From a virus (lineage: Duplodnaviria; Heunggongvirae; Uroviricota; Caudoviricetes), in the IMG/VR virus record IMGVR_UViG_2713896779_000013: a stretch of 6,499 nucleotides of DNA; one strand, written 5' to 3'. This document shows positions 322-4,888 of this stretch, in pieces. The notes beneath the pieces are model-generated. The model ran no database searches. It had not been told where the DNA came from and saw only the letters and a list, made by a program, of their open reading frames with translations. Positions within the stretch are counted from its first letter, which is position 1, and the number at the start of each line of letters is the position of its first letter. Both the position numbers and the translations under genes were made by a program.

Positions 322-531
322 TTACGGTGCTGTTTTAAGTCCTGCCGGGATTTCGTTATTGTCCATGCGAATAACTTTATCAACCGGATAACAGTTGCCG
401 GGAATTTTCTGTTCCGCTGCGGCAGCCATGCATTCTTTCATTGAGTCATGTATACCAATAACAAGATCGACTGGCTCGCCTGTATTAAGAAAAACCGTCA
501 GAACGAGTGCAAATACTGTATTCATTGTCAT
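322..531 (-). CDS. small hypothetical protein (~69 aa) with N-terminal hydrophobic segment
   Basis: The supplied ORF is 322..579, but the ATG at 531..529 overlaps the TGA stop of the upstream gene (ATGA coupling), and an alternative ATG at 525..523 has AAGGA about 8 nt upstream. Translation MTMNTVFALVLTVFLNTGEPVDLVIGIH... starts with a 16-residue hydrophobic stretch (signal or membrane anchor). No family recognised. Confidence 0.45.
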   Translation of the reverse strand: MTMNTVFALVLTVFLNTGEPVDLVIGIHDSMKECMAAAAEQKIPGNCYPVDKVIRMDNNEIPAGLKTAP

Positions 532-710
532 CGTCCTTTTTGCATCAGGCGTAAACGGGCCAGCATTGAAACAATGCATATTTGATTTAATAGCTCCCGT
601 TCGTGTTTTCTCTTATTAATGGCATCTTCAGTAAATACAGGGTTACTGATTCTGACACCAATTTCAAAACAACCTTCAGACGTATTGACGTTTGGTAATA
701 ACGTTTCCAT
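528..710 (-). CDS. small hypothetical protein (~60 aa)
   Basis: Internal ATG (710..708) of supplied ORF 528..806, preceded by GAGGA with a 7-nt spacer; stop TGA 530..528. Translation METLLPNVNTSEGCFEIGVRISNPVFTEDAINKRKHERELLNQICIVSMLARLRLMQKGR. The longer upstream extension has no RBS. No family recognised. Confidence 0.45.
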   Translation of the reverse strand: METLLPNVNTSEGCFEIGVRISNPVFTEDAINKRKHERELLNQICIVSMLARLRLMQKGR

Positions 711-727
711 TATCGCATCCTCAACAA

Positions 728-889
728 TGAATTTTGTGATGCGGTGCCTGGTGCCTCCAGGTGACGTTAACCAGTTAATAATTAACGCCGGATACAGAGA
801 ACCCACCCATAAGAACCAATACGGAAGTCAACTGGCCTTTTTAACTGTTCCGCGTGCGCTGAGCCGCATTCACCGCATCACAAAATTCA
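728..889. repeat. pair of perfect 19-bp inverted repeats (728-746 TGAATTTTGTGATGCGGTG; 871-889 CACCGCATCACAAAATTCA) flanking a 124-bp spacer
   Basis: Exact reverse-complement match read directly from the sequence. The left copy lies 18-36 nt upstream of the 528..710 gene start; the spacer contains short palindromes (CCTGG..CCAGG, GTTAAC). Confidence 0.8.
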
Positions 890-893
890 CTTT

Positions 894-939
894 AAAAAGG
901 GCGGGTATCACAAGGGAAAACAAAAAACGGATACCCGCC
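894..939 (-). terminator. hairpin followed by T-run on the minus strand (possible intrinsic terminator for leftward transcription)
   Basis: 10-bp perfect stem GGCGGGTATC (900-909) / GATACCCGCC (930-939). On the minus strand the stem is followed by CTTTTT (plus-strand A-run 894-898). The 20-nt loop is unusually long for an intrinsic terminator, hence low confidence. Confidence 0.35.
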
Positions 940-1286
940 AAAAGGTAATCAACATGGGTTGTTGCAGCGGGGTTGTCACTTAAGCGTATGGTCAACCTGA
1001 CAACCCGGTGTCCTCAACGGGGAAGGAATAACCCCGCCATACTTACCGCCGCGCCATTTCGCGGATTGCCACAACCGGAAGCGCACAGACGAAGATGTCA
1101 GTGGTACACAACAAAGGGAGGAATGACTTCGCCGTGCGCTTTCGCGTTATGCCCTGACTTTTCAGGGATATATCCTTTCAGTAAACTGTTTGTGCCGGAT
1201 TCTTATCCGTGTCCGGCGCACGACCATGCGCTGTCACGTGTGGTCTCCATTCTCAACCAGTAACCTCAATGGAGGATAAAATTAAA

Positions 1287-1586
1287 ATGGTCAGCAAACT
1301 AAATCAGACTCGCTGGAAGATTCATTATGAAACAGCGCGTTTAAATTATATTCTTGAATGTTTTGGGGATAACCTTGCTGCTGAGGAAGGCTATCCAAAC
1401 CATGTCGATGGTTTCGAAGCGATATATCTTTATCTATCCCGTAAACATGGATGGACTATTTCACAGTGTCGTTTAATGCCACTGGATGATATTCGCCTTG
1501 CTCTTTCGTTAGAGCTATCAGGGTGGCGACTCCCTGATGATGCAAAGATTGACGACCATCATTCTCACGATGATATAAGTTGTTAA
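1287..1586 (+). CDS. hypothetical protein (~99 aa), rightward and convergent with the leftward operon
   Basis: ATG 1287 with GGAGG at 1271-1275 (spacer 11 nt); an in-frame ATG at 1269 has no RBS. Stop TAA 1584-1586. Translation MVSKLNQTRWKIHYETARLNYILECFGDNLAAEEGYPNHVDGFEAIYLYLSRKHGWTISQCRLMPLDDIRLALSLELSGWRLPDDAKIDDHHSHDDISC. Overlaps the 3' end of the minus-strand gene 1456..1845 by 131 nt, so one of the two may be shorter or spurious. Confidence 0.5.
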   Translation: MVSKLNQTRWKIHYETARLNYILECFGDNLAAEEGYPNHVDGFEAIYLYLSRKHGWTISQCRLMPLDDIRLALSLELSGWRLPDDAKIDDHHSHDDISC

Positions 1587-1845
1587 GTTCCAGTAGTTTG
1601 GCTTTTGCAATGACCTCTACAGATTTCCAGAATTTGTGGGGGTCTGTACTCTCTTCCTGTTCGTCAGGAATGTTATTGTCCTCAACAGAAACAGAATACA
1701 GTCCGGTAAACGCATCGCGCACATTACGAGCCATATTATCAATGTCTTTTTTCGTTTCAGCTTCTAATGCAACTTCGTTCAGACGTTGACGAAGTGTATG
1801 TGCTGCAATTTCTTGGATTTCTTTTGGTAACTCTTTAAATTCCAT
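1456..1845 (-). CDS. hypothetical acidic protein (~129 aa), second gene of the leftward early operon
   Basis: ATG 1845..1843 preceded by GAGG (spacer 6 nt). An upstream in-frame ATG at 1857..1855 overlaps the stop of the preceding gene (TGATG), so the start could be 1857. Stop TAG 1458..1456. Net acidic, predicted helical. No family recognised. Confidence 0.5.
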   Translation of the reverse strand: MEFKELPKEIQEIAAHTLRQRLNEVALEAETKKDIDNMARNVRDAFTGLYSVSVEDNNIPDEQEESTDPHKFWKSVEVIAKAKLLELNNLYHRENDGRQSLHHQGVATLIALTKEQGEYHPVALNDTVK

Positions 1846-1856
1846 AGTCAACCTCA

Positions 1857-2087
1857 TCAGTCAGTGTTTCTGGCTAACCAGCGATGCGCGCCAGTTTCGG
1901 TTTTAAACGTTTTGCTTTTGGTATACGTTATCGCGGTGAACGTACCGTCCTGGTTGGGAAACACGCCGCATACCAGAGATTCACTGTTGCCAAGATCGAT
2001 AGTATCCATGTTGACCTCATTTCCCCTTAACGCCGGGGGAGCGGAACAAAAACCTGCTGCATAGTTAAAGTTGAACCCTGCCGTCAT
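1857..2087 (-). CDS. hypothetical protein (~76 aa), first gene downstream of the pL-like promoter
   Basis: ATG 2087..2085 with GAGG about 9 nt upstream; alternative internal ATG 2009..2007 with GAGG 5 nt upstream would give about 50 aa. No arginine-rich N-terminus, so not an N-type antiterminator. No family recognised. Confidence 0.45.
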   Translation of the reverse strand: MTAGFNFNYAAGFCSAPPALRGNEVNMDTIDLGNSESLVCGVFPNQDGTFTAITYTKSKTFKTETGAHRWLARNTD

Positions 2088-2186: not shown

Positions 2187-2215
2187 ACTATAGGTAATGC
2201 CTAATTGATTGTCAA
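2187..2215 (-). promoter_or_regulatory. pL-like sigma70 promoter for leftward early transcription
   Basis: On the minus strand: -35 TTGACA (plus coords 2210-2215), 17-nt spacer, -10 TATAGT (plus coords 2187-2192). Embedded in the ATTAGGC-type operator repeats. Confidence 0.5.
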
Positions 2216-2250
2216 TAGGCTATGCCTAATGTTTTGATCGTAACCTAATA
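2195..2250. promoter_or_regulatory. OL-like operator cluster (three GCCTAAT/ACCTAAT half-sites)
   Basis: GCCTAAT at 2199-2205 and 2224-2230, ACCTAAT at 2243-2249. The same motif (as ATTAGGC / TTAGGC) recurs in the repressor-cro intergenic region; position mirrors lambda OL. Confidence 0.45.
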
Positions 2251-2324: not shown

Positions 2325-2801
2325 TTAAGTTCCAGTTTTTGTGATGTTCTGGCTTTTCCGTTCAGATTCTAGAGCTTTCAGATACTTACCCACTTTCATT
2401 TCCATCGCTGCTATGTAGGCGCGAACATCGTGGTCAACCCAATCTGGTTCTGTAGCATTTCCAGATAACAGGAAAGCTACAATCGCTCTTATTTCATCAG
2501 AGGCTGCTTGATAAAGGTTGTTTATATCTAAAAGTTCACTTTTTGTATCTGAATTGGTGGGGGTTGGTATGGGGTATTCGTTAAGCCCCCAATGCTCTGG
2601 ACCAACAACATCAGAAAAGAAACGCCATAATTCTGGAAGTTTATCTTTACTTATAGAGCCTTTCTTAATCCAGTCATAAATTGATGGTGGTTGGACTTTG
2701 AAGTGGCGTGCGACCTCCGCCTTTGATTTGACGGATCCCGATGCGATTTTTTTGTTAATGGCCTGCTCTATCGCTCGGCCTAAGTCTTTACCACTAAGCA
2801 T
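2325..2801 (-). CDS. racR: prophage repressor, XRE-family HTH (RacR-like, CI functional analogue), 158 aa
   Basis: ATG 2801..2799, 158 aa. N-terminal HTH-like segment (GSVKSKAEVARHFKVQPPSIYDWIKKG). Divergent from a cro-like gene, between two operator clusters. Length and context match E. coli K-12 Rac racR (from memory, not searched). Confidence 0.8.
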   Translation of the reverse strand: MLSGKDLGRAIEQAINKKIASGSVKSKAEVARHFKVQPPSIYDWIKKGSISKDKLPELWRFFSDVVGPEHWGLNEYPIPTPTNSDTKSELLDINNLYQAASDEIRAIVAFLLSGNATEPDWVDHDVRAYIAAMEMKVGKYLKALESERKSQNITKTGT

Positions 2802-2824: not shown

Positions 2825-2898
2825 TTGCATTAGGCAATCCCTACCTTTATCGCATTAGGCACAGCCTATTGACATCTGTGTTAGGCGTCGCCTAATAT
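2825..2898 (+). promoter_or_regulatory. OR-like operator region with pR-like promoter for ydaS
   Basis: ATTAGGC at 2829-2835 and 2854-2860; perfect 15-bp palindrome TTAGGCGTCGCCTAA at 2881-2895. -35 TTGACA 2869-2874, 18-nt spacer, -10 TAATAT 2893-2898, with the palindrome overlapping spacer and -10. A leftward repressor promoter on the other strand was not confidently located. Confidence 0.55.
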
Positions 2899-3221: not shown

Positions 3222-3243
3222 AACATCAAGAGGCAAATGATTC

Positions 3244-3669
3244 ATGAAAATCAAGCATGAACACATCCGCATGGCGATGAATGCCTGGGCGCGTCCTGAT
3301 GGCGAAAAAGTTCCAGCAGCTGGAATAACCCAGGCTTATTTTGAGTTGGGTATGACGTTTCCTGAACTGTATGACGATAGCCATCCGGAAGCCTTGGCTC
3401 GCAATACCCAGAAAATTTTCCGCTGGGTAGAGAAAGACACCCCTGATGCAGTTGAAAAAATTCAGACGTTGTTACCAGCGATCGAAAAGGCAATGCCACC
3501 TTTGCTGGTGGCCAGAATGCGCAGCCACAGTTCAGCTTATTTTCGGGAGCTGGTGGAGACGCGGGAGCGACTGGTGAGAGACGCTGATGATTTTGTCGCA
3601 GTGGCAATCGCCGGTTTCAATCAGATGAACCGTGGTGGCCCGGCAGGAAATGCTGTGGCAGTTCATTGA
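3244..3669 (+). CDS. ydaT: CII-like protein (YdaT family), ~141 aa
   Basis: ATG 3244 with AGAGG upstream. Immediately follows the cro-like gene, as ydaT does in Rac-type prophages. Length is close to K-12 YdaT (140 aa, from memory). Confidence 0.8.
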   Translation: MKIKHEHIRMAMNAWARPDGEKVPAAGITQAYFELGMTFPELYDDSHPEALARNTQKIFRWVEKDTPDAVEKIQTLLPAIEKAMPPLLVARMRSHSSAYFRELVETRERLVRDADDFVAVAIAGFNQMNRGGPAGNAVAVH

Positions 3670-3740
3670 CTGACAATAGCCATATCGAATCGCTTCCGGC
3701 AACTCGTGAGTAAAAAGATTCGGTATCAGAAGAGGTGAGT

Positions 3741-4888
3741 ATGGCTAACGCCTGGCTCAGATTATGGCATGACATGCCAAATGACCCTAAGTGGCGAACA
3801 ATTGCCAGGGTGTCAGGGCAGCCAATTGCAACAGTGATGGCAGTGTATATCCACCTCCTGGTGAGCGCGTCACGAAATGTCACGCGAGGTCACATTGATG
3901 TCACGACAGAAGATTTGGCAAGTGCGCTCGACGTGACAGAAGAGGTAATTGATTCAATTTTGCAGACGATGCAGGGGCGGGTACTTGATGGTGATTTAAT
4001 CACTGGATGGGAAAAACGCCAGGTGCTGAAAGAGGACAACGGCAATATTTCGCAAACCGCAAAATCTCCGGCAGAGCGCAAGAGGGCGCAGCGAGAGAGG
4101 GAAAGAAAGCGGGAACAAAATGGCGATTGTCACGGCGAGTCACGAAATGTCACGCACATGTCACGACGAGTCACGACAGATAAAGATACAGATAAAGATA
4201 CAGATCAAGAAGATCAAAACACTATGGACCATGGCGTAAAAAACGCCACGAACCAGGCAGGGGATGTTCAGACCGTCAATCCTGGTCAGCCAGCAGGCAC
4301 GACACCGNNNNNNNNNNNNNNNNNNNNNNNNNNNNNNNNNNNNNNNNNNNNNNNNNNAAGCCGATTCAGCGTATGCGCTGAAAGCCGATTCGGGCGCTGT
4401 GCAGCAGGTGATGACCGCAAGGCAGGAGCAATCACACCAACTTCAGCAGCCTGAAGCCGATTCCGCCATTCAGCGGGAAGCCGATCGGGTAGTCCCGGAA
4501 AACACCGGTCAGTCTGTGGGACGAGTGGATTATCCGGATGTGTTCGAACAGGTCTGGCGGGAGTACCCGTTGCGTGCTGGGGCAAACCCGAAGAAATCCG
4601 CTTTCAGTGCCTGGAAGGCCAGATTACGCGAGGGGGTGCCACCAGAGGCCATGCTGGATGGCGTGAGGCGTTACGCAAGATACTTGGCGGCTACCGGGAA
4701 AACGGGAACGGAATTTGTTCAGCGAGCGACGACGTTTTTTGGACCGGACCGGAATTTTGAGAACCCCTGGTTGCTCCCGGTAAGCGGCACGAACAACCAG
4801 CGTTGTGTGAATCATATTTCTGANNNNNNNNNNNNNNNNNNNNNNNNNNNNNNNNNNNNNNNNNNNNNNNNNNCTGGTCATGAGGTAA
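3741..4888 (+). CDS. ydaU: replication initiation protein, YdaU-like (DUF1376-type N-terminus); interrupted by two N-runs, frame changes across the first gap, 3' end uncertain
   Basis: ATG 3741 with AAGAGG and a 5-nt spacer (supplied ORF starts at GTG 3735). N-terminal MANAWLRLWHDMPNDPKWRTIARVSGQPIATVMAVYIHLL resembles the YdaU/DUF1376 family. After the 4308-4357 gap the protein-like frame is a different one and stays open 4360-4821 (contains DYPDVFEQVWREYPLRAGANPKK...). Proposed end at TAA 4886-4888 is a guess; alternatives are TGA 4881-4883 or 4944. Could be two genes or a pseudogene. Confidence 0.5.
3869..3905. repeat. four GTCACG direct repeats at 10-11 bp spacing inside the replication gene (iteron-like cluster 1)
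   Basis: GTCACG at 3869, 3879, 3900 and GTCACa at 3889; includes the 16-mer TCACGAAATGTCACGC that recurs near 4141. Confidence 0.55.
4130..4220. repeat. iteron-like cluster 2 (about five GTCACG/TCACG repeats at roughly 10-bp spacing) followed by an A+T-rich tandem repeat (GATAAAGATACA x2, GATCAAGAA, GATCAAAAC)
   Basis: Read directly: ...GTCACGgcgaGTCACGaaatGTCACGcacatGTCACGacgaGTCACGacaGATAAAGATACAGATAAAGATACAGATCAAGAAGATCAAAAC. Coordinates +/-1 because of a one-base disagreement between my reading and the ORF track in this line. Iterons plus an A+T-rich segment resemble the lambda ori inside gene O. Confidence 0.5.
4308..4357. other. run of 50 N (assembly gap or masked sequence) inside the replication gene
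   Basis: Literal n characters; lies between the A+T-rich repeat and the AAGCCGATTC repeats, and the coding frame differs on either side. Confidence 0.99.
4358..4487. repeat. AAGCCGATTC direct repeats on a 24-bp period (4358, 4382, 4454, degenerate at 4478)
   Basis: Exact 10-mers at 4358-4367, 4382-4391, 4454-4463 and AAGCCGATC at 4478-4486; spacings 24, 72 (3x24) and 24. They also encode 8-residue peptide repeats (ADSAYALK / ADSGAVQQ / ADSAIQRE / ADRVVPEN), so could be a linker repeat, DNA iterons, or both. Confidence 0.5.
4824..4873. other. run of 50 N (assembly gap or masked sequence) at the 3' end of the replication gene
   Basis: Literal n characters; prevents defining the stop of the YdaU-like gene. 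Confidence 0.99.

Follow-up and report, generated by a model that had tools for sequence, protein, structure and literature searches.

What does a perfect inverted repeat do between a transcription terminator and the gene of a cell-division inhibitor? The question is raised by a stretch of 6,499 nucleotides (hereafter the window) from the IMG/VR virus record IMGVR_UViG_2713896779_000013 (Caudoviricetes), in which the 19-bp sequence TGAATTTTGTGATGCGGTG at 728–746 and its exact reverse complement at 871–889 enclose 124 nt just upstream of the leftward gene dicB. A first-pass annotation had suggested terminal inverted repeats of a miniature mobile element, paired sites of a looping regulator, or a long-range RNA stem that controls translation of the downstream genes. 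We found that the two arms of the repeat form an RNA helix in the leftward transcript, conserved as RNA structure, and we consider it likely (with a probability of roughly 0.75) that its arms form an RNase III processing module on read-through transcripts of the early-left (dicB) operon.

The perfect repeat was present as reported and is the longest inverted repeat in the window for loops of up to 300 nt. Its description as far beyond chance was borne out: 60 simulations of the window with a first-order Markov model gave longest repeats of just 9–12 bp; analytically, only about 7e-6 perfect repeats of at least 19 bp would be expected. On the minus-strand RNA, one G·U and one A-U pair are gained and the helix extends to 21 bp (871–891 with 726–746). 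Folding of this RNA gave a minimum free energy of −92.7 kcal/mol (z = −5.5), and what had been called a palindrome-rich spacer resolved into four inner helices. Both flanking signals were likewise confirmed, namely the terminator-like hairpin (GGCGGGUAUC...GAUACCCGCC at 939–900, minus strand, followed by CUUUUU at 899–894) and the ribosome-binding site of the next leftward gene, which is dicB. The elements in question, in the direction of transcription, are as follows.

894–939, minus strand: terminator hairpin with U-run, followed by the repeat-bracketed unit and then by dicB
871–891, minus strand: 5' arm of the closing helix, AGUGAAUUUUGUGAUGCGGUG, containing the right-hand repeat (871–889), with the putative RNase III cut at 880|879
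726–746, minus strand: 3' arm of the closing helix, CACCGCAUCACAAAAUUCAUU, containing the left-hand repeat (728–746), with the predicted partner cut at 736|735
711–725, minus strand: dicB leader, with the ribosome-binding site GAGGA at 722–718 and the ATG at 710
528–710, minus strand: dicB, 60 aa, cell-division inhibitor (Pfam DicB, 127.5 bits, 1.5e-37)

Several hundred copies of the unit were gathered from viral, genome and metagenome collections, and covariation was analysed in 26 diverse copies from one subgroup, recognised by having the first inner hairpin of the window (hereafter dic-type). RNAalifold recovered the 21-bp closing helix and the four inner helices from this alignment. The closing helix was paired to 98.2% across the 26 homologues, with double compensatory changes in 13 of its 21 pairs; none of 500 shuffles matched the observed covariation score or percentage paired, and sliding the 3' partners by 1–3 columns as a control brought pairing down to 33–42%. 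Among 137 distinct copies we found 33 distinct long arm pairs, all of which hold 20–30 pairs, although the arm sequences differ between lineages (at least six are clearly different, and some, such as CAACAGACCUUGCAAUGCAGUG, AGCAGGCUUUAAGGUGCGGUG and UUAAUCAGGAUUUGCAAUGCGGUG, are unrelated). On the sense strand of the downstream gene, non-Watson-Crick positions comprise 46 G·U vs 7 A·C, which identifies the leftward RNA as the molecule under selection. Compensatory changes at stem positions, named by the first-pass annotation as the sign of RNA structure, were therefore what the alignment contained: the arms covary and their sequence is not conserved. The proposed long-range stem thus stands as far as the helix itself is concerned, which covaries and has wobbles that fit the leftward strand, but the control of downstream translation attached to it is not conserved. 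The median contiguous closing stem is 21 bp in dic-type copies vs 8 bp (6–9 bp) in 151 other copies of the wider STnc100/PasD family discussed below, and the 21-bp helix is a lineage-specific extension of the 6–9 bp closing stem of that family.

The unit is present in 4641 of 5426 complete Escherichia coli genomes (~85%), with a median of two and up to nine places per genome, and also on P1-like plasmid prophages, while the STnc100/PasD-like class occurs in many other Enterobacterales. All copies examined lie in prophage operons. The unit is carried by each of the 20 phage records that encode a homologue of DicB (at identities down to 67%); in 178 copies the downstream gene, where called, is always in sense orientation, its start codon 33–67 nt from the core. 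The genes preceded by the unit are dicB (two types), kilR, terB (P7/D6), the gene of a 283-aa putative regulator and those of several hydrophobic peptides of 35–78 aa. In E. coli K-12, the unit occupies the 174-nt dicF–dicB spacer of Qin and the spacer of Rac between kilR and KilS, a validated Hfq-bound small RNA (sRNA); these two copies and thousands of others are unannotated and fall just under the Rfam threshold for STnc100. E. coli-type units with 85–88% identity were also detected in two phage records attributed to distant hosts, MT713136 (Aeromonas phage AP1, 249972–250133) and PP818812 (Actinobacillus phage vB_Apl-pPE4, 5840–5995), which may be mis-assigned or chimeric sequences.

That the arms vary in sequence from lineage to lineage argues against their being recognised by a transposase or by a DNA-binding regulator. 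A miniature mobile element that had inserted past the terminator and before dicB, with the arms as its terminal inverted repeats, would be in keeping with the abrupt ends of homology that some phage comparisons show at the arms (matches from query position 227), with the 1–9 occurrences per E. coli genome and with the copies on P1-like plasmid prophages; like miniature inverted-repeat transposable elements and ERIC/REP-type sequences, the unit is short, multicopy, intergenic and terminally symmetrical. Unlike these, it is confined to prophages, has covarying arms and keeps a fixed orientation and register, with a near-fixed distance to the downstream start codon. A search for target-site duplications, empty sites and variation in orientation found none: the flanks (...CCTCAACAA and CTTTAAAAAGG...) contain no direct repeat, and none of the 20 dicB phage records lacks the unit. 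The arms, moreover, vary by lineage and are complementary throughout, with strand-specific G·U pairs, and we regard a mobile element as very improbable. To the last of the three suggestions, paired DNA sites of a regulator looping the 124-bp spacer, we give practically no credence. The symmetry of the two sites is its one point in favour, whereas it is complementarity and not sequence that is conserved between lineages, the G·U asymmetry would be meaningless for DNA binding, and the arms are unrelated to the operator-like repeats found elsewhere in the window (2210–2231 and 2853–2874).

If the arms form an RNA helix, what is it for? Helices of approximately 20 bp are substrates of the host double-strand-specific nuclease RNase III. 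The 72-nt form of DicF, the sRNA encoded upstream of dicB in K-12, reportedly goes back to work by Faubladier, Cam and Bouche in 1990, to which later reviews refer. According to two reviews (PMC5069750, PMC9438474), processing of full-length dicBF RNA of K-12 by RNase III yields this 72-nt DicF (53 + 19 nt), and the dicA–dicF–dicB intergenic regions are among the RNase III substrates listed in a review (PMC2777011). Table S1 of PMC5371410 gives 0 reads in the wild type vs 26 in the rnc mutant for position 1649470 (dicF–dicB), flagged there as known; this position falls inside the K-12 unit. The K-12 unit is orthologous to that of the window (~87% identity over the unit, with position and 21-bp helix shared), and the 72-nt DicF ends 19 nt past its terminator hairpin (...UUUUUAAAGUGAAUUUUGU), 12 nt into the 21-nt 5' arm. 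Alignment of this RNA to the window places a putative cut at 880|879 and, since double cleavage by RNase III leaves a 2-nt 3' overhang, the partner cut at 736|735; the corresponding cuts in K-12 would be 1649453|54 and 1649583|84. There are differences between the two loci: the K-12 helix has three G·U pairs vs one in the window, Rfam does not identify the small RNA upstream of the unit in the window as DicF, and the cleavage reports concern K-12 only. Substrates of RNase III are known to offer ~22 bp of double-stranded RNA and to be cut with 2-nt overhangs, and in vivo the two pairs that separate the cuts usually include a G-C; the window helix has 21 bp, and the pairs between the putative cuts are G11-C and U12-A.

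The length of the helix appears to be tied to processing, as suggested by the 21 bp of dic-type copies vs 6–9 bp elsewhere in the family and by the L245 type, where an unrelated helix of ~25 bp begins 2 nt past the U-run of a DicF-like terminator and closes a different inner domain. Taken with the K-12 reports, these comparisons of helix length make an RNase III module the most likely mechanism. In a scan limited to consensus signals (a well-placed sigma-70-like promoter, and a terminator within 90 nt), none of 42 dic-type copies had a promoter or terminator of its own, whereas 29 of 150 canonical family copies had the promoter (4 of 150 after shuffling) and 64 of 150 the terminator. At the L245 locus itself (3330–3660, minus strand), a short-stem dic-type core is followed in turn by the DicF-like terminator, the ~25 bp helix (arms ACAAAACAGAGAAGA.../...UCUUCUCUGUUUUGU) with the small domain that it closes, and an HD-domain-like gene, an arrangement seen in 27 fetched copies. 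The consensus scan upstream of an L245-type copy found no promoter, and we do not claim that a short stem marks a promoter-proximal position.

Antitermination is an established part of the biology of lambdoid phages, and in an induced prophage the antiterminated transcripts would be expected to ignore the sRNA's own terminator. The arms would then pair in the leftward transcript, giving the 21-bp helix that closes an RNA of ~165 nt between the DicF/KilS-type sRNA and dicB. RNase III, whose cleavage at this place is reported in the K-12 literature, would cut both arms at 880|879 and 736|735, positions that we place by homology with K-12. The upstream sRNA would be left with a free 3' end 19 nt beyond its terminator hairpin and could still mature; a pseudoknotted, STnc100/PasD-like core RNA of ~144 nt would be cut out and, we infer, released in stable form; and the dicB message would be separated, with a new 5'-monophosphate end and 25 nt of unstructured leader before the start codon. 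Our guess is that cleavage limits dicB expression by way of this 5'-monophosphate and unstructured leader.

A number of points weigh against such a module. It is by arithmetic (53 + 19 nt), together with two reviews, that the 72-nt species is linked to the helix. Read counts in the rnc data set are low and take similar values at many unrelated positions, and a 2023 study places the RNase III site that yields a 190-nt species upstream of dicF and mentions no downstream site. Long-helix copies of the L032, L085, L126 and L430 types have no terminator hairpin upstream, so formation of an sRNA 3' end would not be the sole role of the helix, and dic-type copies of the P7/D6 and L245 types have a closing stem of only 9 bp, from which it follows that the core does not require the long helix. 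No excised-core RNA species was reported in the literature searched. Two further candidates from the Rac prophage were set aside: entry 1418510 (kilR–sieB) of the rnc data set was dropped as support, lying upstream of KilS and outside the unit, and the Rho-dependent terminator t_rac upstream of kilR was rejected as an instance of the unit, lying inside racR.

The RNA that the helix encloses gave one meaningful match in Rfam, to STnc100 (RF02076) at 733–887 (minus strand), with an outer stem that coincides with the arms. At 33.5 bits (E = 1.5e-4 for the whole window), the match is below the gathering score of 47, as are those of the K-12 copies (34.4 and 28 bits). Judged by sequence and predicted architecture, the 124-nt core is related to the prophage sRNA family STnc100/PasD, but it is divergent and stays below the threshold. 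The closing stem, the GGUGAAU motif and the UCACCnGGAGGCACnnGGCACC block are common to both, and a joint alignment of dic-type copies with 33 canonical STnc100 members gave the same order of elements, namely closing stem, GGUGAAU, hairpin 1, junction, variable region and hairpin-UCACC, with a CCnGG-AGGCA-CCnGG hairpin against the 3' strand as the last element in each. Inside the arms, the window contains the following.

852–867, minus strand: inner hairpin 1 (helix 2), GCGGC-UCAGC-GC-A-CGC, the dic-type signature, preceded by the invariant AAU junction (870–868)
790–851, minus strand: three-pair helix GGA/UCC (helix 3; 851–849 with 792–790), one pair with double changes
793–847, minus strand: segment enclosed by the GGA/UCC helix, consisting of the junction CAGUUAA (847–841) and a length-variable part (840–793)
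763–789, minus strand: inner hairpin 4, with the loop UUAACUG (778–772) and double changes in 5 of 11 pairs
747–761, minus strand: inner hairpin 5, CCUGG-AGGCA-CCAGG, abutting the 3' arm and lying within the near-invariant UCACCnGGAGGCACnnGGCACC block

Inner hairpin 1 is 100% paired and nearly invariant in the 26 copies, and the conserved block, 22 nt long, is near-invariant across Enterobacterales prophages. The junction CAGUUAA is complementary to the loop UUAACUG of hairpin 4, which predicts a pseudoknot. In 161 copies the longest complementary run between junction and loop had a mean of 5.63 nt, vs 3.94 ± 0.07 nt when loops and junctions were permuted between copies (maximum 4.15 in 200 permutations), and dozens of different matched junction/loop sequences were seen, among them CCAGUC/GACUGG, AAUGACUG/UGGUCAUU and GAGCCACAA/UUGUGGCUU (loci L005–L244). 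As this complementarity covaries throughout the family, it argues for a compact pseudoknotted fold of the core. No mention of the junction–loop pseudoknot was found in the literature searched. According to a preprint (10.64898/2026.05.13.724894), STnc100 is related to PasD, abundant Hfq-bound sRNAs of pathogenic E. coli that are encoded in the late regions of Stx-type prophages; dicB, dicF and kil are not mentioned in it.

The window copy thus shares with STnc100/PasD the closing stem, GGUGAAU, the order of hairpins, the junction–loop pseudoknot and residence in prophages. It differs in the sequence of hairpin 1 (AAUGCGGCU...), in a closing helix of 21 bp vs 6–9 bp, in lying within an operon and lacking both a promoter and a terminator that belong to it, and in location, which is the early-left operon before dicB/kil in contrast to a late region near stx, esterase and lysis genes. 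The HK022-type put antiterminator RNA had also been considered, since many family members sit just past promoters, and proved unrelated: put RNA is ~70 nt long with two stem-loops, and the HK022 genome contains no match to the core block at up to 3 mismatches and none to STnc100. Some peculiarities of single copies may be recorded here. One copy from a metagenome (L268) has neither the variable region nor hairpin 4, and yet retains the 21-bp helix. In phage P7 (L004, AF503408), whose copy of the unit lies in the ban operon, ARAGORN predicts a tRNA-Ser (UGA) ~110 nt upstream of that copy, at 3226–3312 (minus strand), which the P7 record does not annotate, and the canonical family members L200 and L210 have a tRNA-like sequence within ~12 nt downstream.

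Could the dic-type core, then, be a functional RNA in its own right? We suggest tentatively that it is a member of a widespread class of pseudoknotted RNAs in which, for the dic-type, excision by RNase III takes the place of biogenesis by promoter and terminator. If so, a single cleavage would mature the DicF/KilS-type sRNA, free another functional RNA and decide what becomes of the division-inhibitor mRNA, and a conserved host factor would bind at the near-invariant block of 22 nt.

Two other readings of the helix accept it as RNA and have to be weighed against processing. In one, it is mainly a translational switch, its base and the upstream U-run hiding the dicB ribosome-binding site until cleavage or melting. 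UUUUUAA (898–892) can indeed pair weakly with UUGAGGA (724–718), extending the helix to ~28 pairs with one bulge, and the U-run of kil-type copies finds its partner in an A5 run abutting the GGAG site. For 11 lineages (two dicB copies and nine others) we computed by partition function how accessible the ribosome-binding site is with the RNA uncut and cut at the inferred position: the predicted unpaired probability of the dicB site rises modestly, from 0.42 to 0.58 in the window and from 0.44 to 0.67 in K-12. Among the nine others, that of the corresponding site rises from 0.24 to 0.51 in Stx 75/02, falls from 0.72 to 0.40 in K-12 Rac and from 0.39 to 0.26 in P7, and is flat in L032, L085, L073, L430, L126 and L078. 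As these changes are inconsistent across lineages, translational masking would be minor or lineage-specific at best; the extension, moreover, consists mostly of G·U and A-U pairs, and there are long-helix copies with no U-run upstream. As the main role of the helix, a switch of this kind seems to us rather unlikely.

It is also improbable, in our view, that the long helix serves as a clamp for folding, shielding the pseudoknotted core from the flanking operon sequence, with the core acting in cis or trans and cleavage by RNase III being incidental. The strong conservation of the core, with its near-invariant block and covarying pseudoknot, would fit such a role, as would the restriction of long helices to operon-embedded copies lacking their own promoter or terminator and the kinship with PasD, whose members are abundant Hfq-bound sRNAs (preprint 10.64898/2026.05.13.724894). 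Yet embedded copies with just a 9-bp stem exist (P7/D6 and L245 types), an equally long helix closes an unrelated inner domain after a DicF-like terminator, and a perfect helix of 21 bp is unlikely to evade RNase III in E. coli.

Processing by RNase III has well-known parallels. Classical intercistronic and leader sites, such as the sites in T7 early mRNA, the lambda N leader and sib, rpsO-pnp and metY-nusA, consist of a helix of at least ~20 bp within a polycistronic RNA that is cut on both strands, with consequences for stability or translation. The helix of the window is like these in that, by analogy, a cut would separate upstream and downstream RNAs, and unlike them in that it encloses a conserved pseudoknotted domain of ~125 nt which elsewhere is a stand-alone gene. 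The second K-12 locus, in Rac, has the same layout (PMC8175672, Bar et al. 2021): an Hfq-bound sRNA, KilS, ending in CCGCCCUUUUU, then the unit, then the gene of a small division inhibitor directed at FtsZ. The KilS–kilR spacer itself is not described in that paper. This copy (L443, minus strand) differs in one bulged A in the helix and in having, at ~470–480, GACAC in place of the otherwise invariant GGCAC of the conserved block.

Upstream of the unit, the hairpin at 894–939 stands where Qin has DicF and Rac has KilS, with a body different from that of DicF. A search of 700–1300 of the window with the Rfam DicF model (RF00039) gave no match even at E ≤ 10, while K-12 dicF, as the positive control, scored 76.7 bits and KilS, weakly, 39.1 bits; all that the window has in common with DicF is the frame ...GGCGG-hairpin-CCGCCCUUUUUAAAG, along with the upstream flank. 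We therefore regard the hairpin as a positional analogue of DicF/KilS and not as DicF, although one related phage record annotates DicF there. The region at 960–1010 (minus strand; GGGUUGUCAGGUUGACCAUACGCUUAAGUGACAACCC) is nearly identical to the K-12 sequence upstream of dicF and forms a hairpin of ~10 bp.

The window as a whole comes from a lambdoid prophage of the Qin/Rac kind, of which it represents the immunity and early region. In related phages an identical gene set is annotated and the dicB homologues are labelled cell division inhibition protein. The other genes and signals of the leftward side are as follows.

2325–2801, minus strand: repressor-like gene
2215–2187, minus strand: strong leftward promoter-like site
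1857–2087, minus strand: YdfA-type DUF1391 gene
1456–1857, minus strand: 133-aa gene
579–322, minus strand: DUF1482 gene

On both sides of the repressor-like gene there is a 22-nt inverted repeat (95%; 2210–2231 and 2853–2874), each arm of which overlaps a strong promoter-like site, at 2215–2187 (minus strand) and 2869–2898 (plus strand), respectively; the arms are probably matching left and right operator–promoter regions. Clusters of GTCACG-containing repeats with a period of ~10 nt, at 3869–3907 and 4129–4177 within a replication-initiator-like open reading frame (ORF; 3735–4454), look like origin iterons. A 99-aa ORF with a good ribosome-binding site (1287–1586, plus strand) converges on the leftward operon and runs into the 3' end of its 133-aa gene; it has the position of sieB in Rac, and had no match in Pfam or PHROG. 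Three runs of exactly 50 N (227–276, 4308–4357 and 4824–4873) mark masked or unassembled sequence and interrupt ORFs on both flanks of the region studied.

What does the locus add to the biology of these prophages? As its K-12 counterpart is a reported RNase III site (1990, dicBF operon), the repeat is largely explained already; the window contributes one more allele of that site, and the question as originally posed matters little. A modest novelty may lie in the unannotated, operon-embedded subgroup of STnc100/PasD ahead of a division inhibitor and other small genes, and the lineage-specific closing helix of 21 bp and the covarying pseudoknot of the core may also be new. Being sub-threshold and unannotated, the embedded subgroup, which directly precedes toxic genes such as dicB and kilR, is missed as a whole by current surveys of prophage sRNAs. 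The covarying pseudoknot and the near-invariant block of 22 nt suggest that the core takes up a defined three-dimensional fold and has a specific partner; together they provide a concrete handle on what RNAs of the STnc100/PasD type do.

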